A stretch of DNA of 64,000 nt from an uncultured Chthonomonadaceae bacterium (GCA_963817895.1 CAWFQB010000004.1:224001-288000); one strand, 5' to 3'. Positions 1,515-55,274 are shown, counted from the first letter of the stretch. Numbers and translations are program-made. The notes: a model not told the origin generated them from the sequence alone.

Positions 1515-2681
1515 TTAACTGACGAGAACTTGCTCTAAATAGGCGTTGTCCCATCCGGCTTTCTTCTGCCGGGCCTTGATGCCGCGCTCACAGGTCTTCT
1601 CCTGCCGGATCAGGTTGAGCGCGATGTGGCGCAGAACGGCCATGTTCTCGGCTCCATGCTCTTTGCGGATGCGGCAGGCGTCTTCGTTGAGGCTGACATC
1701 CAGGACATAGTGTAAGCGGTTCTCAATGCCCCAGTGTTGCCGCACCGCTTTGAGAACTTTGCGGGCCTCATGAGGGACACTGCTAATGAAGTAACGCGCT
1801 TCCTCGCTGGTGGTGTCGCCGATGTGGCGGGTGCAGGTGACACGCGCCAGACTGCGCAAGCCTTTCCAGTGCTGCTGCGCGTCGCCCCAACAAAGATCGT
1901 CAAGATCAAGGGTGAGCAGGTCACACCGTCGTATGTCTACACGCCCGTGTCCGCGCCCGCTCGTGGTATGGCAACTATGATTGCAGTCGCGCCAGTGCTT
2001 TTCTTCGGCATAGGCGAAGCGGGCTTGTATATCCTGATGTAGATGAGGCTGATTGTCCTTGACCGCAATCACGTAGTCGCCTCCCTGTTGGACAATCTGC
2101 GCGACCGTTTCGGTCTGGCAGCTCATCGCGACCGTTTCGGTCTGGCAGCTCATCGCGTCCGTGGTGACGATGCAGCCCTTGATGTCGAGCAGATGCAGCA
2201 GGGCGGGAACCATGGGGATTTCGTTGGTTTTCTCTTCAATCTTGAGTTGCCCCAACACCAGACGCGCGCTTGCCGCCCAGGCGCTGACCATGTACATGGC
2301 TTTTTGCCCACACGCCAGATCAAAGCTGTGGCGCAACGCCTTGCCGTCGAGGGCAATGGTCTCGCCTTCGGTAAACTGATGCAGCGTTTGCGTCCACAGC
2401 CGAAAACACGCTTGCAAGGCCGTTGGCTCCAGGCGGGCAAAGACCCGCCGAAACGTGTCTGCCGAGGGGATGCCGTTGGGCAACGCCAGACGTTCTTGCA
2501 GCCACGCTTGCTTGGCAGTCCCAAAAGCGGCCATGTCGTCCCACCCTTCCGCGCCGCACAGCACGGCGCAGATGGCAATCACCAGAATGTCCATTAAGGA
2601 ATGCAGGCGGGTACGTTCCACGCGCGGATCGGGCAAGTCCGACAGGCACTCCACGAGCGTAGGAAAAGCAGACACAGACAT
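1515..2681 (-). CDS. ISAs1-family DDE transposase
   Basis: Motifs DPRVERTRLH, GIPSADTF, IALDGK, DYVIAVKDNQ, RQHWGIENRLHYVLDV. Confidence 0.95.
   Translation of the reverse strand: MSVSAFPTLVECLSDLPDPRVERTRLHSLMDILVIAICAVLCGAEGWDDMAAFGTAKQAWLQERLALPNGIPSADTFRRVFARLEPTALQACFRLWTQTLHQFTEGETIALDGKALRHSFDLACGQKAMYMVSAWAASARLVLGQLKIEEKTNEIPMVPALLHLLDIKGCIVTTDAMSCQTETVAMSCQTETVAQIVQQGGDYVIAVKDNQPHLHQDIQARFAYAEEKHWRDCNHSCHTTSGRGHGRVDIRRCDLLTLDLDDLCWGDAQQHWKGLRSLARVTCTRHIGDTTSEEARYFISSVPHEARKVLKAVRQHWGIENRLHYVLDVSLNEDACRIRKEHGAENMAVLRHIALNLIRQEKTCERGIKARQKKAGWDNAYLEQVLVS
2101..2154. repeat. 27-bp tandem duplication inside the transposase (AMSCQTETV x2)
   Basis: GCGACCGTTTCGGTCTGGCAGCTCATC occurs twice in direct succession. 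Confidence 0.95.
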
Positions 2682-2742
2682 CAGGCAGGCTCCTCAAAGA
2701 TGAATGGGGTGCCATTCACCATTGGCGAGACGAGTTCCTGTC

Positions 2743-3789
2743 TCAAACTATTTTAGATGCGCCGGCCCTGCGGCTGATCCGCCTTGATTTCGGGCGCGTG
2801 GGTTGGTCCGGGAAATGCAGGTTTTCGCGTCTGTCGGCTTTGCGCATGGGTTCATCGGGCGGCGTCTGGTTCCGTAGAACGGTCAATTCGCTGATGTTGC
2901 GCAGTTGTTCCTCGGACGAATGGCAGTAGATCGCGGTGACAGTCAGGCTGCTGTGTCCCAAGAACGCCTGCACATCCCTGATGTTCGCGCCGCTCCGTAG
3001 CAGGTCGGTGGCCCGCCAGTGACGTATCGAATGGGGTTTGATGTTGTCATGTCCCGCAAGTCCCGCTTGATGTTTTACGTCTTCCACGAGCATCTGCAAA
3101 CTTGTGTGTCCCAAGCGGCGGTTCACATCATACGTGAACAGATAGGGATGCTTGCAGTTGTTGGGACGCAGGGCAAGCCATTCTTTCAGCGCGGCAATGG
3201 CTTCCTCGGGCAGGTAGATTTTCCTTGACTTGCCGCCTTTGCCACTGCGTACCAGCAAGCTGCCCTTGCTCTTACCGTTCTTCGGATCGGGAAGCGTCAC
3301 ATCGTCCAGATGCAGATCGCACAGTTCCGAACGGCGCAAACCGCCATAAACCAGAACGCACAAGACAGCGCGACACAGCGCGACGCGGCGCGGACTGCGA
3401 TTGCGGCGGCAGGCATCGAGAAGAAGCGCGATTTCTTCATCGGTAATCGTCTTGCGAATGGCGGCGTCTTTCTTTGGAAGGGTGACAGTCTTTGCCGGGT
3501 TGTCGGCGATGACACCGTTGCGGATAAGGAATTCTCCCAAGCCTTTCAGCGGGTGAAAGTAACTTCGGATGCTGCGCGGGCGCAATCCCTTGCCGCTCAA
3601 GTAGTAGAGGAAGCGGCGGCAAACGGGCGGGTTGAAGTCGCTTAATGTCGGTTCCGGGTAGCCGTTTTCCGTCAGCCAGGTGTGGAAGTGGCGTAACTGC
3701 GCCCCGTAGCCTTTCTGCGTGGTCGCCGCTGCGCCTTGTTCGACGCGCAGGGCTTGCAGGTAGTCGTGAATGAGAGTGTCCAGTTGCAT
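2743..3789 (-). CDS. Tyrosine recombinase/integrase (XerC/D-like); native stop replaced by IS sequence
   Basis: Catalytic set GLRRSEL, GKGGK, HSIRH, LGHSS, TAIY; last residues (RAGASKIV*) are read from the IS end. Confidence 0.92.
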   Translation of the reverse strand: MQLDTLIHDYLQALRVEQGAAATTQKGYGAQLRHFHTWLTENGYPEPTLSDFNPPVCRRFLYYLSGKGLRPRSIRSYFHPLKGLGEFLIRNGVIADNPAKTVTLPKKDAAIRKTITDEEIALLLDACRRNRSPRRVALCRAVLCVLVYGGLRRSELCDLHLDDVTLPDPKNGKSKGSLLVRSGKGGKSRKIYLPEEAIAALKEWLALRPNNCKHPYLFTYDVNRRLGHTSLQMLVEDVKHQAGLAGHDNIKPHSIRHWRATDLLRSGANIRDVQAFLGHSSLTVTAIYCHSSEEQLRNISELTVLRNQTPPDEPMRKADRRENLHFPDQPTRPKSRRISRRAGASKIV

Positions 3790-3905
3790 GTTGGGCTGCC
3801 TTTCAGAGTGCTTAAAGACAGCGACATAGCGGGGTAGAGCGGTGACTTAAACCCGCAACGCGCACAGGTAGGACAAAGTCCTGTACCTATGCGCCATGCT
3901 CAAAA

Positions 3906-3977
3906 TGCCGCAGGTCCGAGTTGAACGGACAACGTCCACGTTTTCAGCATGGCGCTCTACCACTGAGCTACTGCGGC
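3906..3977 (-). tRNA. tRNA-Phe(GAA)
   Basis: Cloverleaf; anticodon loop CTGAAAA; no encoded CCA. Confidence 0.92.
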
Positions 3978-4025
3978 GTACCTACCTGTTTCCTAAAATC
4001 TTAGAACCCTAACACCCTAACCCCA

Positions 4026-4096
4026 TGCGCCCGGAAAGAATCGAACTTTCGTCGCGCGGTTATCAGCCGCGTGCTTTCCCATTAAGCTACGAGCGC
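4026..4096 (-). tRNA. tRNA-Ile(GAU)
   Basis: Anticodon arm CGCGG-CTGATAA-CCGCG; T-loop TTCGATT. Confidence 0.9.
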
Positions 4097-4100
4097 AAAA

Positions 4101-4172
4101 CTCCCCCGGCTGGATTCGAACCAGCAACCGTTCGGTTAACAGCCGAATGCTCTACCATTGAGCCACAGAGGA
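4101..4172 (-). tRNA. tRNA-Asn(GUU)
   Basis: Anticodon arm TTCGG-CTGTTAA-CCGAA; G73. Confidence 0.93.
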
Positions 4173-4192
4173 TCAGAAACGGAAACGCAATT

Positions 4193-4266
4193 ACCTCACC
4201 CCGGGCGTCCACCCGAAGGGAAGGACACCCCTCTCCTTGCCGCTCCTTCGTCACCAAAAGAGGGGC
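4193..4266. repeat. REP-like palindromic repeat, family A variant
   Basis: ACCTCACCCCGGGCGTCCAC...CCCCTCTCCTTGCCGC...GAGGGG; reverse-complement match at ~45203-45270. Confidence 0.75.
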
Positions 4267-4274
4267 TTTTTGTA

Positions 4275-4345
4275 TCCTCATTCCCGTGTTTGAATCGGGT
4301 TCAACCCCTTATAAGGAGGCCGCTCTACCCATGAGCTAAACGAGG
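4275..4345 (-). tRNA. tRNA-Ile(UAU), atypical T-stem (A53-A61 mismatch)
   Basis: Acceptor CCTCGTT/AATGAGG, D-stem GCTC/GAGC, anticodon loop CTTATAA, T-loop TTCAAAC. Confidence 0.75.
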
Positions 4346-4400
4346 CGCTCAATTCCTACGAACAACCAAACTGTCACAACGCACATTTACCAACATATCA

Positions 4401-4473
4401 GGCGAGAGACGGGATTCGAACCCGCGACCTTTTCGATGGCAACGAAACGCGCTTCCAATTGCGCCACTCTCGC
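4401..4473 (-). tRNA. tRNA-Gly(GCC), discriminator C
   Basis: Anticodon arm TTTCG-TTGCCAT-CGAAA. Confidence 0.9.
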
Positions 4474-4571
4474 ATATTGCAGGGAGTAGGGGATAGGCAG
4501 TAGGGAGTAGACCTGTACTGTAATATCCTGTCTTTCCTATTCACCACTCCCCACTCTCTACTCCCTACCCA

Positions 4572-4644
4572 TGCCCCCGGCAGGAATCGAACCTGCTGTC
4601 TTCACGTCCGAAGCGTGACGCCGTTTCCAGTTGACTTCAGAGGC
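4572..4644 (-). tRNA. tRNA-Arg(UCG)
   Basis: Anticodon arm TCACG-CTTCGGA-CGTGA. Confidence 0.87.
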
Positions 4645-4665
4645 ACATTCAACCACAACAACCAG

Positions 4666-4739
4666 TGCGCAAGGCAGGATTTGAACCCGCAGCCGTTTCT
4701 TTGTAAGAGAGCCGCTCCACCGGATTGAGCTACTCGCGC
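4666..4739 (-). tRNA. tRNA-Val(UAC), two mismatches in the anticodon stem
   Basis: Anticodon arm GCTCT-CTTACAA-AGAAA; acceptor and T arms intact. Confidence 0.8.
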
Positions 4740-4795
4740 TTATTGAGTGAGAGTGAGAGAAAATGCGGCTTGTTCTCTCACTCTTCACTTTTCTA

Positions 4796-4867
4796 TACGG
4801 AGGACGGGAGTCGAACCCGCGTTTTGTCCTTGAAAGAGACGCCTCCTGACCGTTAGAGGACCCCCGC
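4796..4867 (-). tRNA. tRNA-Glu(UUC)
   Basis: Glu-type D-arm TCCTCTAACGGTCAGGAG; loop CTTTCAA. Confidence 0.85.
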
Positions 4868-4885
4868 GCAGCACACAACAAATTA

Positions 4886-4956
4886 TCGGGGTAACAGGAA
4901 TCGAACCTGTGACAGATAGGCCCAAGCTATCCGTTATACCATTTCACTACACCCCG
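4886..4956 (-). tRNA. tRNA-Pro(UGG)
   Basis: 5' CGGGGTG; anticodon arm GATAG-CTTGGGC-CTATC. Confidence 0.88.
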
Positions 4957-4967
4957 TTTTGCGCCCA

Positions 4968-5039
4968 GGCCGACGAGCGGATTTGAACCGCTGACCTGCT
5001 GTTTACGAAACAGCTGCTCTACCTCTGAGCTAAGTCGGC
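4968..5039 (-). tRNA. tRNA-Thr(CGU)
   Basis: Anticodon arm GCTGT-TTCGTAA-ACAGC. Confidence 0.9.
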
Positions 5040-5069
5040 GCTTGAAGAGAGTTTACAGATGATAGTTGA

Positions 5070-5244
5070 TTCACTATCGGACACATTCTTGCCAGGGGTT
5101 GAAAACCCCTGTCTACATGGCCTGCGGCCAAGCGTCCTTCGGACGCAAATGCTTGTTTACAAATTCTCGCGTCCGAAGGACGCTTGGCCGTAGGCCACTC
5201 AGACGGGTATTTTCAATGCCCGGTAAAATGTGTCCAGTAGTGAA
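5070..5244. repeat. ~175-bp nested palindromic element (family B, MITE/REP-like) within the tRNA array
   Basis: Imperfect terminal IRs (TTCACTA.CGGACACATT...GCCAGGGGTTGAAAACCCCTGTCT / AGACGGGTATTTTCAATGCCCGG...TGTGTCCAGTAGTGAA); internal GCGTCCTTCGGACGC hairpins; relatives at ~34423-34493 and ~52301-52425. Confidence 0.8.
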
Positions 5245-5301
5245 ATAGTTGATAAACACGCGCCTTTCCTATCAACTAATAACCATCAACTTCTTAGCGG
5301 A

Positions 5302-5375
5302 TGCCAATCGGGGGATTCGAACCCCCAACACGTTAGTTCTGAACCAACGGCCTCTACCAGTTGGGCTAGATCGGC
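5302..5375 (-). tRNA. tRNA-Leu(CAG) with short (5-nt) variable loop
   Basis: Anticodon arm GTTGG-TTCAGAA-CTAAC, variable GTGTT, A73. Confidence 0.85.
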
Positions 5376-5404
5376 GTCTTCCCTCCTCTTTTCCGTTTAT
5401 CAAA

Positions 5405-5476
5405 CAGGGGCGGCAGGATTCGAACCCGCAACAGATGGTTTTGGAAACCATGGCTCTACCGTTGAACTACACCCCT
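5405..5476 (-). tRNA. tRNA-Trp(CCA)
   Basis: Anticodon arm ATGGT-TTCCAAA-ACCAT; G73. Confidence 0.93.
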
Positions 5477-5585
5477 TCGTCGGTATTCGGTGTTCGGTAT
5501 TCGGAACTACAGGACAGGAGCTTTATAGTGCATAGAAGGCTTTTGACTGAATACCGAATACCGAACACCGAATACCGTTTCTGCA

Positions 5586-5658
5586 TGGAAGCGAGAGGAT
5601 TCGAACCTCCAACTCTTTGCTTAAAAGGCAAATACTCTGACCGTTGAGTTACGCTTCC
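5586..5658 (-). tRNA. tRNA-Lys(UUU)
   Basis: Anticodon arm TTTGC-CTTTTAA-GCAAA. Confidence 0.93.
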
Positions 5659-5743
5659 GAAGAAGTTGAGAGTTGATAGTCCATAGTTGATAGTAAAATT
5701 CTCCGACTATCAACTATCAACTACAAACTATCAACTCTCCCCA

Positions 5744-5816
5744 AGCGCCGGGTCGGAGTTGAACCGACACAATACGGCTTTGCAGACCGCTCCCTTAACC
5801 GTTCGGGCACCGACGC
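5744..5816 (-). tRNA. tRNA-Cys(GCA)
   Basis: Anticodon loop CTGCAAA; U73. Confidence 0.9.
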
Positions 5817-5836
5817 GAAACAAACACAAACTTGTA

Positions 5837-5855
5837 TATGCAGTTATCAAGGTAC
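5837..5855 (-). promoter_or_regulatory. rrn-type boxA-like antitermination element
   Basis: GTACCTTGATAACTGCATA resembles the GAACCTTGAAAACTGCATA-type boxA of rRNA operon spacers. Confidence 0.6.
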
Positions 5856-5859
5856 AAAA

Positions 5860-5933
5860 TGGGGATGGGAGGACTCGAACCTCCGGCCTTCACCTTCGCA
5901 GAGTGACGCGCTAATCCACTGCGCCACATCCCC
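5860..5933 (-). tRNA. tRNA-Arg(GCG)
   Basis: Anticodon arm TCACT-CTGCGAA-GGTGA; D-loop has A20 (Arg identity); no G3:U70. Confidence 0.87.
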
Positions 5934-5971
5934 AAACTCTCACTCTCCACTCTCACTCTTCACTTCTCAAA

Positions 5972-6043
5972 CGCGCTCGACGAGAGTTGAACTCGCTTCT
6001 TCTGCTCGACAGGCAGGCATGTTGACCGGTACACCACAAGCGC
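5972..6043 (-). tRNA. tRNA-Asp(GUC), first gene of the array
   Basis: Anticodon loop CTGTCGA; G73; acceptor GCGCTTG/CGAGCGC. Confidence 0.87.
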
Positions 6044-6142
6044 AGGAGAGGCATCAGGCATTAATATTAGGTAGTAGCTAAAAGCCACAAGACACGAGAG
6101 ACAAGTTGAAAACCCAACACCGAACAAACGAGCAATTCAGCC

Positions 6143-6182
6143 AAAAAAAGCCCACTGTGCCTTTGGAGTTGGGACAGTGGGC
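6143..6182 (-). terminator. Intrinsic terminator upstream of the tRNA array (attenuator)
   Basis: GCCCACTGT...ACAGTGGGC 9-bp stem followed by T7 on the minus strand. Confidence 0.88.
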
Positions 6183-6210
6183 GAAGAATTCGCGCTGGTT
6201 GAGGAAACGG

Positions 6211-6390
6211 TTAAGCGTCTCCTCCTGTCCCAACAAGGCATTTGCAATTATTGCCACAACCGCGCAGGCCAATACTATCCATCAGGCGCGGGCAGGCAAG
6301 ACGTATCTCATCGTTACAACTCGGAATCGCGAGCTGCGTTTGCCATTTGCGTCTGCGGCCTGTCTGCGGTTGTCGGTTGGTTTCAAACAT
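6211..6390 (-). CDS. Putative 59-aa attenuation leader peptide MFETNRQPQTGRRRKWQTQLAIPSCNDEIRLACPRLMDSIGLRGCGNNCKCLVGTGGDA
   Basis: ATG at 6390 to TAA at 6211 (read manually); codons 51-56 are complementary to the terminator 5' arm and loop; stop codon lies in the loop of a 9-bp hairpin. Confidence 0.7.
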   Translation of the reverse strand: MFETNRQPQTGRRRKWQTQLAIPSCNDEIRLACPRLMDSIGLRGCGNNCKCLVGTGGDA

Positions 6391-6528
6391 TGTGTGCTTG
6401 CCTGATCCTCAAAATTGCGTTTGTTTGGCGCGGTTCGTTTTGTATTTTCCGTTTCCGCGTCCTTCACACCTATTGATTGGATTGCGCGGAGATTAGTTGC
6501 ACCCTCTTGAAAAGAAATTTTGAGCCAC

Positions 6529-6969
6529 TCAAATAAGTCTCACCACATAGCGCATGAAATACAGAAGGAGCAGCAGTGTCACCGCAGCCAGTAGGGAAGA
6601 TAAAATACCCAGTTTTCGGGAACGAATCCACCCGCTTGTTCCCAGACTGGCAAGCAACGCGACCATTCCCAGCATAAACCCCATTCCCGCCCACCGTACC
6701 GCGCCCATGATCGCTGCCCGTACTTCCAGGGGCAAATCCGTAGCCGAGCGCAGGGCAGGACGATCCACGATGTAGAACACGCCTGTCACGCTGACAACCG
6801 CGCAGACAATCAGGCAGACGGCGGCAACCAGTGCCGCTCCTGCCGTATAATCTACGGATCGGCGGTTTGTCGGGGCGTTCAAAAGGCCAACCAGAAACGT
6901 TACGGCAAACCCTGCCAGCACAGTGCCAAGAAAGGCAAGTTGACGCAACGTTTCAGCGACAGATTCCAT
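6529..6969 (-). CDS. Hypothetical four-TM membrane protein
   Basis: Four hydrophobic segments, ATG start. Confidence 0.7.
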   Translation of the reverse strand: MESVAETLRQLAFLGTVLAGFAVTFLVGLLNAPTNRRSVDYTAGAALVAAVCLIVCAVVSVTGVFYIVDRPALRSATDLPLEVRAAIMGAVRWAGMGFMLGMVALLASLGTSGWIRSRKLGILSSLLAAVTLLLLLYFMRYVVRLI

Positions 6970-7064
6970 AAAAATTCAACTCTCAACAGGGAAAAAGGGT
7001 ACGCCGCACAAATAAAAGCGCGAGTTTCCGTAGCGGGCAGACAGGACAGAACGCGCCTGTTGCT

Positions 7065-8630
7065 TTACGGGCGCAGCGCTGTCTTACCCGAAGTCGCTTG
7101 ATCTGTCCAGGGCGAAAGAACAGACGCGGGTATGATTTCAGAGGGAACGTTTCCGGTTTGACCGGGCTTGAGCCAGCCGACGGAAAGGCTGTCGCCGCCC
7201 ACATCCTGTTTTTGCAGGGCTTCGATGTAGTAACGCTTGCCTGCCTGTAAATGGACAGGGGCGGATTTTTGTTCGGGCAGTTTGTTCCACTCGCGCCGCC
7301 CGGTATAGCCGTCGCCCGTTGTCACACTTGCGATTTTGACCGCGCCGGCAGGTTTGTCGTCCATTCCTAAACGCAACTCGCAGTTGTCGTCGCCCGCAAT
7401 CCAAAAGGTGTAGTCGCCCGTTGTCGGCGGCGTCAGATACCCGCGCAGGCGCGTGCCGTAGTTGATGCCGACACTGGTGGGCGCTTCAAAATCGCGCAGG
7501 TAGGTGACGGAGTGGGGCTTGCTGGCGACGGGAATGTCCGATACCTGCTTGCCGCGTATGTCCGTCCAGACTTCGCGCGTCAGATGGTTGTTGAGCGCTT
7601 TGTCGGTGGCGCGATAGGCGGCGATTTGCGCGGCATTGGCTTTGGACTGGTACACGCGCACATAGTCGCACTGCATCTTCCAGGGCATGGAAGCCTCGTC
7701 AACCTGCCAGGGCTTATACGGCGTTTTGTTGGCGTCCATCTCCTGCGAGTACCACTGCCCACCAACGGCGAGATTGATGAGCAGGTACATCGGACGGTTG
7801 AACGCGGGCGCGGTTTTGCTCTTCGCCCATACCTTGCCGTCGAAAGTGAATACCATGTCTTCCGGCGTCCATTCCAAACCCCACGTATGGAAATCTTTGG
7901 AAATGTCCGCGCCCACTTCGTTGTAGCCGAACTTCCACGGGATTTCCTCGCCCTCGCGGGGTAGGATGCCCGCGCTGTGCTTGGTGGGGCGATGGCCGAA
8001 GAATTCAAACAAGTCCACTTCCGGCGGCCACTGATGCGCTTCATCTTCGGTGGCTTTGGTCGGATCGTCGCCCAACAGCCAGAACGCGGGCCACGCGCCG
8101 CGAACTCCGGGCAATTTGAATCGCCCCTCCACATAGCCATACTGAAACGTGAACCGCTTGTCGGAGATCAGCAGGCCGGAAGAAAAGGGCCGCTGTTCGC
8201 CCATATAAAACTTGCGCCACAATTCTTCGGGCGTTTTCCACGCTTTAATGGTCAAAATTCCGGGCGTTTCAAACGAAAAGGGATTGAGGCTGCCATTGGC
8301 TTCGGGATGAATGTTGCCCTCGCCGTTGTAGTCCTTATCCACGTAATACTGCGCCTCGACGTTGCTGAACAGCGACCGTTGACTCGAACCCTGCCAGAAC
8401 GTCGTCTGCCATTTGGAACGGTCAATGTACGGCTTGCCGTCCTTATCGGGAACCGCGTCGAATTCATCATGCCATACAAGGGAAAGCGGGTGTCCGAGGG
8501 GCGAAGTGATGGTTTGGGGAACAGAGGCAGTTGCGGCTTTGTCTGCTTTCGGCGGGGCGGCACACGCGCAGGATACGCTCAGAACAATCGCGCTCAGGGC
8601 GCACAAAGCCGATACGAATGTGTTTCTCAT
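7065..8630 (-). CDS. Secreted GH16 glycoside hydrolase with C-terminal PA14 domain
   Basis: Signal peptide; WPAFW and EVDLFE (ExDxxE) motifs; PA14 'GYLTPPTTGDYTFWIAGDD'. Confidence 0.9.
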   Translation of the reverse strand: MRNTFVSALCALSAIVLSVSCACAAPPKADKAATASVPQTITSPLGHPLSLVWHDEFDAVPDKDGKPYIDRSKWQTTFWQGSSQRSLFSNVEAQYYVDKDYNGEGNIHPEANGSLNPFSFETPGILTIKAWKTPEELWRKFYMGEQRPFSSGLLISDKRFTFQYGYVEGRFKLPGVRGAWPAFWLLGDDPTKATEDEAHQWPPEVDLFEFFGHRPTKHSAGILPREGEEIPWKFGYNEVGADISKDFHTWGLEWTPEDMVFTFDGKVWAKSKTAPAFNRPMYLLINLAVGGQWYSQEMDANKTPYKPWQVDEASMPWKMQCDYVRVYQSKANAAQIAAYRATDKALNNHLTREVWTDIRGKQVSDIPVASKPHSVTYLRDFEAPTSVGINYGTRLRGYLTPPTTGDYTFWIAGDDNCELRLGMDDKPAGAVKIASVTTGDGYTGRREWNKLPEQKSAPVHLQAGKRYYIEALQKQDVGGDSLSVGWLKPGQTGNVPSEIIPASVLSPWTDQATSGKTALRP

Positions 8631-54985: not shown

Positions 54986-55274
54986 CAACAGCATAGTCCA
55001 CCAAACCAGCAAAAAATTCAGAAAAAAAGAGCCGCACAACGCAAAAAACACGAAACCTTCGCTCGACTCCACATGTCAAATGCAGTACACAAAAATCTAC
55101 ATATCCGGCAGGTACTATACAGAAGCCAGACACACAGGAGGGGAGGTGCAAGAAGATGCCTGTCCACTCCCGTGCGCCCTGACGCTCACGAGGTCACGAC
55201 GCCTCTACCTAAAAACTTGACACAACGAGACAGAGTGCTGAAAGCGCTGCATTGCCAATATTTCGACAACGTCT

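Follow-up and report, generated by a model that had tools for sequence, protein, structure and literature searches.

A stretch of 64,000 nucleotides (nt) from an uncultured Chthonomonadaceae bacterium (GCA_963817895.1 CAWFQB010000004.1:224001-288000; the whole stretch is referred to as the window, and the genome it belongs to as G000) carries on its minus strand an array of 16 tRNA genes, preceded by a leader of ~450 nt in which a short open reading frame (ORF), an intrinsic terminator and an RNA junction competing with that terminator are found (Table 1). Leader and array are present in soil bacteria of the Armatimonadota. The tRNA genes all lie on the same strand, with short spacers, within 2.1 kb, in the order Asp, Arg, Cys, Lys, Trp, Leu, Thr, Pro, Glu, Val, Arg, Gly, Ile-UAU, Asn, Ile-GAU, Phe. 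The first of them, Asp-GUC, begins 98 nt past the U tract of the terminator, close to the ~100 nt given in an earlier note that was made from the sequence alone. The array tRNAs are largely redundant, spare copies: the G000 assembly contains 67 tRNA genes, 51 of which are located outside the array, and 14 of the 16 array anticodons also occur elsewhere in the assembly, the exceptions being Ile-UAU and Phe-GAA. Array genes and housekeeping genes of the same anticodon are 51-92% identical. In line with an L-array, many same-strand tRNA genes with short spacers add redundant isoacceptors, and the distribution of the array among relatives is patchy.

Table 1. Coordinates of the leader, its RNA elements and the tRNA array (positions counted from the first base of the window).
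Feature	Position	Strand	Description
tRNA array, 16 genes	3906..6044	-	all 16 above the Rfam tRNA cut-off
Conserved block just past the terminator	6116..6139	-	UGAAUUGCUCGUUUGUUCGGUGUU, 24 nt
Intrinsic terminator	6143..6182	-	9-bp stem, 15-nt loop, U7; 5' arm GCCCACUGU 6182-6174, loop 6173-6159, 3' arm ACAGUGGGC 6158-6150, U7 6149-6143
P1, 3' strand	6158..6177	-	CUGUCCCAAC-UCCA-AAGGCA
Hairpin P3	6181..6193	-	GCGAA/UUCGC; last two bases common to the terminator stem
Hairpin P2	6201..6224	-	9 bp; GAGGAGACG (6224-6216) / CGUUUCCUC (6209-6201)
Leader ORF	6211..6390	-	59 codons + TAA; begins ATG-TTT-GAA; ATG at 6390, TAA 6213-6211
P1, 5' strand (antiterminator helix)	6225..6240	-	UGCCUU-GUUGGGACAG, ORF codons 51-56
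Conserved upstream block	6455..6503	-	GGUGCAACUA, 12 variable nt, UCCAAUCAAU-nn-GUGUGAAGGACGCGG

The terminator, whose arms, loop and U tract lie where the earlier note had placed them, has an energy of -19.3 kcal/mol when folded alone; it was missed by a simple terminator scan because that scan permits loops of 3-8 nt only. The competing antiterminator helix, P1, is formed by UGCCUUGUUGGGACAG (6240-6225), inside the ORF, with CUGUCCCAAC (6177-6168) and AAGGCA (6163-6158), the intervening UCCA being bulged. The 3' strand of P1 overlaps the 5' arm, the loop and the first base of the 3' arm of the terminator. Together with hairpin P2, which holds the stop codon of the ORF in its 6-nt loop, as had been noted before, and hairpin P3, which the earlier note lacked, P1 makes up a closed three-way junction. 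Some bases of the terminator stem are also part of P1 and P3, and junction and terminator are therefore mutually exclusive. In a fold of 6130-6260 the P1 junction is the minimum-energy structure (-48.7 kcal/mol, z -3.55), and 6159-6240 folded alone has a z-score of -6.44; in neither case did any of 200 shuffles equal the native sequence. Forced folds of the G000 leader gave -44.4 kcal/mol for the antiterminator versus -43.0 kcal/mol for the terminator. The pairing of codons 51-56 with the terminator 5' arm and loop, at the expense of the terminator, had been proposed in the earlier note and is thus recovered in minimum-energy as well as forced folds. An Rfam scan of 3500-7200 (E up to 5) put only the 16 tRNAs above a family cut-off and reported nothing in 6044-6530; no riboswitch, T-box or other curated cis-regulator was matched in 3500-7200, and the remaining matches there, which were set aside, are sub-threshold, microRNA-like and located on spacer hairpins.

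The leader has homologues in related genomes. BLAST of 6100-6520 against 41 related genomes (G000 included) identified it in the two other species of the same genus: in G002, where almost the entire query aligned at 75% identity, and in G001. In both cases it lies directly in front of a tRNA array. The gene order of the G002 array is identical to that of G000, the G001 array is longer, and the flanks of the locus differ between G001 and G000/G002. A covariance model of these three sequences revealed a fourth copy in G016, which represents a second Chthonomonadaceae genus, as the only further true match among 68 genomes of the order. In all four genomes the element immediately precedes a tRNA array with tRNA-Asp-GUC as its first gene. 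In G016 (L023, G016:C677, 595-1617, plus strand) the attenuator is followed by four tRNAs, namely Asp-GUC, one with an unclear anticodon, Ile-UAU and Tyr-GUA, and then by an ORF similar to TROVE/Ro60 (PF05731, E 2.7e-25); no Y-RNA family was matched at this locus. The G016 leader is 5'-truncated, as the contig starts inside the ORF, and BLAST of the 5' half of the leader within G016 gave only matches with E > 2. The first tRNA of G016 starts ~17 nt after the terminator, and therefore transcription of the array must there pass through the terminator.

The leader is thus present in 4 of the 41 family genomes and in none of the 26 genomes of the order's other families. A covariance model of all four sequences yielded no additional true copy among the 41 family genomes, and G000 was the only true match in a sample of 151 genomes of the phylum. 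A motif scan of genome contigs returned only G002 and G001, and two variants of the leader were found as metagenome contigs in public runs. Several other candidates were rejected: two covariance matches (L024, L025) that lie within coding sequence and have no tRNAs; eight weak covariance matches in the family, likewise without tRNAs, of which the one inspected (L041) consists of terminator-like hairpins between genes; a BLAST match of 38 nt in G038 with no tRNA nearby; ten motif matches in metagenome contigs that have neither flanking likeness nor tRNAs; and a viral contig with a motif match inside a coding region and no tRNAs (the other motif gave 0 matches). Plasmid BLAST with array and leader matched 117 records, each over single tRNAs and never over the leader.

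The structural elements are conserved in the four homologues, two of them with changes in sequence. As long as the 3' arm of the terminator is missing, each of the four leaders has the three-way junction as its minimum-energy fold, with z-scores of -6.4, -4.6, -3.75 and -3.3 (0 of 200 shuffles equal in each). The core of P1, GGGACAG/CUGUCC, is invariant throughout, which is to be expected if CUGUCC must pair with two partners, whereas the outer part varies in sequence between G000/G002, G001 and G016 yet pairs in every case. P2, P3 and the outer part of P1 do not fit one alignment and were described per sequence: G002, G001 and G016 each have a stop-containing P2 of differing sequence at the equivalent position, and P3 is present in all four with its sequence shifted or changed. 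The terminator stem is kept in each homologue, with a U-rich tail (95.5% of cells paired, with one compensatory change from A-U to G-C); it is extended in two of them, reaching 11 bp in G001 and, in the fold predicted for G016, 18 pairs. Terminator and exclusive antiterminator thus recur before tRNA arrays at homologous loci. There is good support for an attenuator, made up of a terminator and a junction that competes with it, in the RNA transcribed from this spare tRNA array.

The start and the end of the leader ORF, and hence its length, are those reported in the earlier note. The frame is open in the three complete leaders (59 amino acids in G000 and G002, and 56 in G001, which differs by a 9-nt gap that leaves the frame intact). 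All three ORFs start with ATG-TTT-GAA, their start codon and first codons being invariant, and end at a TAA inside P2. In G016 the 15 visible codons are open, in the sole frame that is open up to the TAA in P2. The stop codon is located 11, 11, 11 and 17 nt past GGGACAG in the four homologues, inside P2 in each of them. With in-frame stops per frame of (own stop, 1, 5) in G000, (own, 0, 4) in G002 and (own, 3, 3) in G001, the frame of ATG-TTT-GAA is the only one that is open in all three complete leaders. The two metagenome variants have no indels within 6211-6390, whereas indels occur just outside, at 6208, 6454 and 6514, as they likewise do in the alignments of the congeners; the listed substitutions of both variants create no stop codon. 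The probability that no stop arose by chance is 0.18 for G002 and 0.175 x 1/3 (for the frame) for G001. The open frame could still be due to chance, at roughly the 1% level.

The peptide itself has changed freely. Between the ORFs of G000 and G002, 59 of 180 positions differ, spread as 25/16/18 over codon positions 1/2/3, and of the codon changes 4 are synonymous and 31 non-synonymous. Identity extends to 29 of the 60 aligned positions (stop included), versus 24.9 expected under random substitution. Such an even spread over the codon positions is what is expected of a frame that is read while the peptide sequence is unimportant. The pattern suggests that what counts is the reading of the frame and not its product, and the leader ORF may be translated. 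The peptide matched no Pfam family. A profile of the three leader peptides gave, against 1.84 billion proteins, four matches at E up to 0.001, two of which are real (59 and 68 amino acids); the two long ones (460 and 2316 amino acids), with 8 and 4 matched stretches, were taken as spurious. The database variant P0001, a complete predicted protein of 59 amino acids, matches one of the metagenome variants.

Upstream of the ORF, the block at 6455-6503 is nearly invariant in G000, G002 and G001, and the sequence further upstream is unrelated; the block marks the 5' limit of homology between the genomes and is unique in the G000 genome. It contains no match of at least 9/12 to TTGACA-N16-18-TATAAT and is a likely promoter or operator of the leader-array unit, as a non-sigma-70 candidate. 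Its layout, GCAACUA-N16/17-UCAAU, is reminiscent of promoters of extracytoplasmic-function sigma factors. Array and leader are devoid of a housekeeping-type promoter. Within 200 nt upstream of the housekeeping tRNAs a match of at least 10/12 to TTGACA-N17/18-TATAAT was found in 27 of 51 cases; the best sigma-70 match in the three leaders is 8/12, and the arrays contain nothing of at least 10/12.

These observations suggest that the ~450-nt leader holds a ribosome-coupled transcription attenuator of the kind described for bmrB (see below), which operates without codon matching; we put the probability of this reading at roughly 55%. Transcription would start at a non-sigma-70 promoter, probably in the block at 6455-6503, and the polymerase would cross the 59 codons of the leader ORF before it meets the terminator ahead of the first tRNA. 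In the emerging RNA codons 51-56 would pair with the 5' arm and loop of the terminator and, with P2 and P3, close the junction, which would block the terminator. A ribosome that follows closely, and is on codons 51-59 or on the stop codon when the 3' arm is made, would hold the 5' strand of P1, such that the terminator forms and the array stays off. With ribosomes that lag, have stalled earlier or have not been loaded, the junction would form first and allow read-through into the tRNAs. Leader and switchable terminator thus probably turn the spare tRNAs on when ribosomes fall behind. Lacking a codon signature, the leader would respond to the overall pace of translation and not to one amino acid; possible triggers are damaged or scarce tRNAs, ribosome-targeting antibiotics and starvation. 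The direction of the switch and the conditions that would induce it are inferred.

In folding models of the switch, a ribosome footprint of -12 to +15 around the P site was masked along the stretch of RNA that begins at the ATG and ends with the U tract. For G000 and G002 the probability of the antiterminator is 0.89-1.0 without a ribosome, or as long as the P site has not passed codon 48, and that of the terminator is 0.91-0.98 once the P site is on codons 51-59; in both leaders masking thus changes the favoured structure from antiterminator to terminator as the P site moves from codon 48 to codon 51. For the G000 leader by itself the two ranges are 0.93-1.0 and 0.92-0.98. The switch that the earlier note had proposed, and had suggested to examine by folding with and without masking near the end of the ORF, is thereby reproduced in G000 and also in G002. 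Its more specific claim, that a ribosome arriving at the stop codon masks the antiterminator and shuts the array off, agrees with the masking models of these two genomes, but not with that of G001 at equilibrium, and is weakened by the limited reach of the footprint at the stop codon.

Indeed, several observations weigh against a ribosome-coupled attenuator. In G001 the terminator (-43.9 kcal/mol) is more stable than the antiterminator (-39.5 kcal/mol) and wins at equilibrium whatever the ribosome position, and the same preference is found in G016 (-55.0 versus -38.4 kcal/mol); in these two genomes the junction could therefore work only kinetically, as a trap that forms ahead of the terminator. 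With the A site on the stop codon, the standard footprint reaches only the last 4 nt of the P1 5' strand in the three congeners and leaves the whole strand free in G016, and blocking at the stop would therefore have to rely on steric hindrance. None of the three complete leader ORFs has a Shine-Dalgarno-like 4-mer at the usual distance, the leaders showing just AGG/CGG near -12; as a benchmark, 391 of 1054 long ORFs of the G000 genome have such a 4-mer at -20 to -7. The fraction of leader codons that can be read by array tRNAs (0.57-0.66, versus 0.56 genome-wide) is not enriched; the codon set used also counted ATG for the UAU anticodon, an error that leaves the outcome unchanged. The 17-19 kinds of amino acids in the leaders are the same diversity as in shuffled open frames. 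On these grounds, both a codon match between leader and array and a leader covering all amino acids were rejected. The sigma-70 consensus scan recognised no promoter for the leader-array unit, and the conserved block at 6116-6139 is not explained by the attenuator scheme. The element is carried by only four genomes, three of which are congeners, and by two partly seen metagenome variants. The combination of ORF, antiterminator and terminator that the earlier note expected at related arrays was found in these four genomes of two genera, but the covariation it also expected is not significant: with four sequences, 125 of 500 shuffles reach the score observed for the terminator, and the P1 core never varies. 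Finally, the sole tRNA-Phe of the G000 assembly, which is 81% complete, is the array copy, and a cell with no other copy could not keep the array fully silent; a housekeeping tRNA-Phe was found in G001 and, 89% identical to the G001 copy, in G002.

Some of these points would suit an attenuator that works by RNA only, in which the choice between the two structures is set by a protein, a small molecule, a tRNA, or the polymerase speed or nucleoside triphosphate level, and the ORF is incidental or keeps Rho off the leader. The RNA elements are the best-conserved parts of the leader, the ORF has neither a canonical Shine-Dalgarno sequence nor a codon signature, its peptide is unconstrained, and a factor that stabilises the junction would help against the stronger terminators of G001 and G016. 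We nevertheless regard this explanation as rather unlikely, because frame, start codon and the position of the stop in P2 have survived heavy divergence, in which a 9-nt gap but no frameshift has occurred. Moreover, the joining strands in the junction are short, neither the length nor the sequence of the P2 and P3 loops is constant, such that no conserved pocket is visible, and no Rfam family is matched, T-box and riboswitches included.

The 98 nt between terminator and first tRNA in G000 could alternatively point to two separate units, with a small gene or small RNA that ends at its own terminator, and an array transcribed from its own downstream promoter. The block at 6116-6139, located in this interval and conserved in G000, G002 and G001, agrees with such an arrangement; it is unique in the genome and is without a sigma-70-like promoter, and promoters for alternative sigma factors would escape the scan. 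In none of the three leaders, however, is a sigma-70 match of at least 9/12 present between terminator and tRNAs, compared to the 27 of 51 housekeeping tRNAs that reach at least 10/12, and in G016 the block is absent and the tRNA follows at once, the gap being just ~17 nt. The earlier note had named a promoter between 6043 and 6143 as an observation that would speak against its model, and no sigma-70-type promoter was found there. In addition, a conserved competing junction would be superfluous for a plain terminator, and there is no sign of selection on the peptide sequence of the supposed small gene, which together make two separate units improbable. Very improbable, finally, is a structured leader that serves processing or stability, as a 5' cap-like fold or RNase site for the maturation of tRNA precursors without any regulatory decision: tRNA precursors do have structured leaders, and long hairpins are also found in the array spacers, but processing needs neither the GC-rich stem with U tract nor the overlap with a competing helix, both of which are kept in all four homologues.

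Ribosome-coupled attenuation can be compared with two known groups of leaders. Leader-peptide attenuators control a number of amino-acid operons (trp, his, leu, thr and pheA). With these the present leader shares the leader ORF, the mutually exclusive antiterminator and terminator and, as proposed here, the ribosome position as the signal, and to this extent the trp/his-type architecture assigned in the earlier note stands. It differs from them in that the ORF is three to four times longer and contains neither a run of codons cognate to the product nor an enrichment of codons read by the array. No runs of regulatory codons are present in any of the leader ORFs. In addition, folds of the full leaders revealed no shared partner for the P1 5' strand other than P1 and no conserved trp-like 1:2 hairpin, which would act as anti-antiterminator or pause, and the predicted default without translation is read-through and not super-attenuation. 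Given that both the codon signature and a shared 1:2 hairpin are lacking, the design is closer to that of bmrB than to that of trp or his.

The bmrB leader of the bmrBCD operon of Bacillus subtilis has been experimentally shown to act by ribosome-mediated transcriptional attenuation: efficient translation of the leader promotes termination, and ribosome-targeting antibiotics promote read-through into bmrCD (PMC4191407). It resembles the present leader in having a long ORF (53 amino acids, versus 56-59 here) without regulatory codon runs, in having antiterminator sequences inside the ORF, and in a logic by which the terminator prevails under efficient translation and read-through increases when translation slows down, so that the overall pace of translation is sensed; for the tRNA leader this logic is a prediction. 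It differs in that bmrB has its terminator within the ORF and is predicted to form an anti-antiterminator, whereas here the terminator is located past the stop codon and the stop is in a hairpin of the junction. The bmrB leader controls an ABC transporter, whereas the target of the present leader would be a tRNA array or, in G016, a few tRNAs and then the TROVE/Ro60-like gene. The two leaders are not related in sequence, and the present one is known from its sequence alone.

A long supernumerary tRNA array under control is the trn operon of Anabaena PCC 7120, where initiation is controlled by the ribbon-helix-helix repressor TrcR, which binds direct repeats over the -10 box (PMC10272220, PMC8421152). 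The mention of TrcR as the repressor of this operon in the earlier note agrees with PMC10272220. Both arrays are long, redundant, patchily distributed among relatives and without strong housekeeping promoters, and a response to translational stress, reported for Anabaena, would be expected here by analogy. In contrast to TrcR, which acts on initiation, control would here be exerted on elongation via the leader ORF. Tandem 9-nt repeats of the TrcR type (TGTWNWWNW type) over a -10 box were not found near the leader, no search being made for a TrcR homologue; two published repeat motifs gave, with at most one mismatch, 0 and 1 matches in the window, the single match (55081-55101) being far from the leader. 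The words attenuator, leader and terminator occur in the available text of neither PMC8421152 nor PMC10272220. Attenuation by a leader ORF is known for amino-acid and antibiotic-resistance genes; searches of the published literature outside subscription journals and supplements found no attenuator or leader ORF ahead of tRNA genes, in agreement with the earlier note, whose author knew of no leader-peptide attenuator that controls a tRNA array.

If the ribosome-coupled attenuator is real, leader-ORF attenuation extends from protein-coding operons to RNA genes. Silencing and induction of long supernumerary tRNA arrays are known in one case, the Anabaena trn operon with TrcR, and a cis-acting leader that reads the progress of ribosomes would be a second, independent solution. 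As it needs no protein regulator, such a leader could travel with the array. The element is compact and self-contained. Spare tRNAs would, moreover, be linked to RNA quality control, because in G016 the Ro60-like gene follows the same switch. We tentatively suggest, as a possibility that goes beyond the attenuator itself, that the leader might be a portable sensor of translation-transcription coupling, which switches on a stress kit of spare tRNAs (in one genus with a Ro60/TROVE RNA-quality-control gene) when ribosomes fall behind the polymerase. It would then do by attenuation what Anabaena does with TrcR, and its triggers could include attack by anticodon nucleases, ribosome-targeting antibiotics and starvation.

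The array has not always consisted of 16 genes. Although 16 tRNA genes are indeed present, as the earlier note had it, the 3' part of the tRNA-Phe recurs over 61 nt at ~550-600 nt before the first base of the window, where it is followed by a tRNA-Ser-GCU (the far end region of the island is G000:C4:223181-223455, about 550-820 nt ahead of the window). In between lies an island (1515-3977 in the window) with an integrase (2743-3789, Pfam PF00589) and an insertion sequence with a DDE transposase (1515-2681). In G002 the same site is occupied, the repeat being located 15.2 kb downstream with an integrase and a D5-like primase(-helicase) in between. The repeat, and the tRNA-Ser beyond it, indicate that the island was integrated into the last tRNA of the array, which once ran on to the tRNA-Ser. 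The integrase is therefore not part of the array, and the idea that it marks the array as a mobile element was rejected.

Some further observations concern the tRNA genes. The tRNA-Ile-UAU (4275-4345) occurs only in the array in the G000 assembly; of the housekeeping set, three CAU tRNAs are called Met, and one of these is presumably the lysidine-containing Ile2 tRNA. The codon AUA is found at position 29 in two of the three complete leader ORFs, and at positions 17 and 50 in the G001 leader. Among the ARAGORN calls for the 51 non-array tRNAs of G000 are a tRNA-SeC, a tRNA labelled Pyl whose anticodon is CUA, and a tRNA-Cys that has ACA as its anticodon. Several array spacers are occupied by long hairpins (4479-4568, 5115-5200, 5483-5575 and 5668-5739), which match microRNA-like Rfam families sub-threshold on both strands and may be processing signals or small palindromic repeats; a 47-nt piece (5245-5291) matches G002 in inverse orientation. 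In the G001 array (L019, 8282-8871, minus strand) a Phe-GAA-like tRNA that was missed by ARAGORN (51.7 bits with Rfam tRNA) is followed by a TATAAT-like box, a Shine-Dalgarno sequence and a Cys-rich ORF of 152 amino acids without a Pfam match, which may be a gene inserted into the array.

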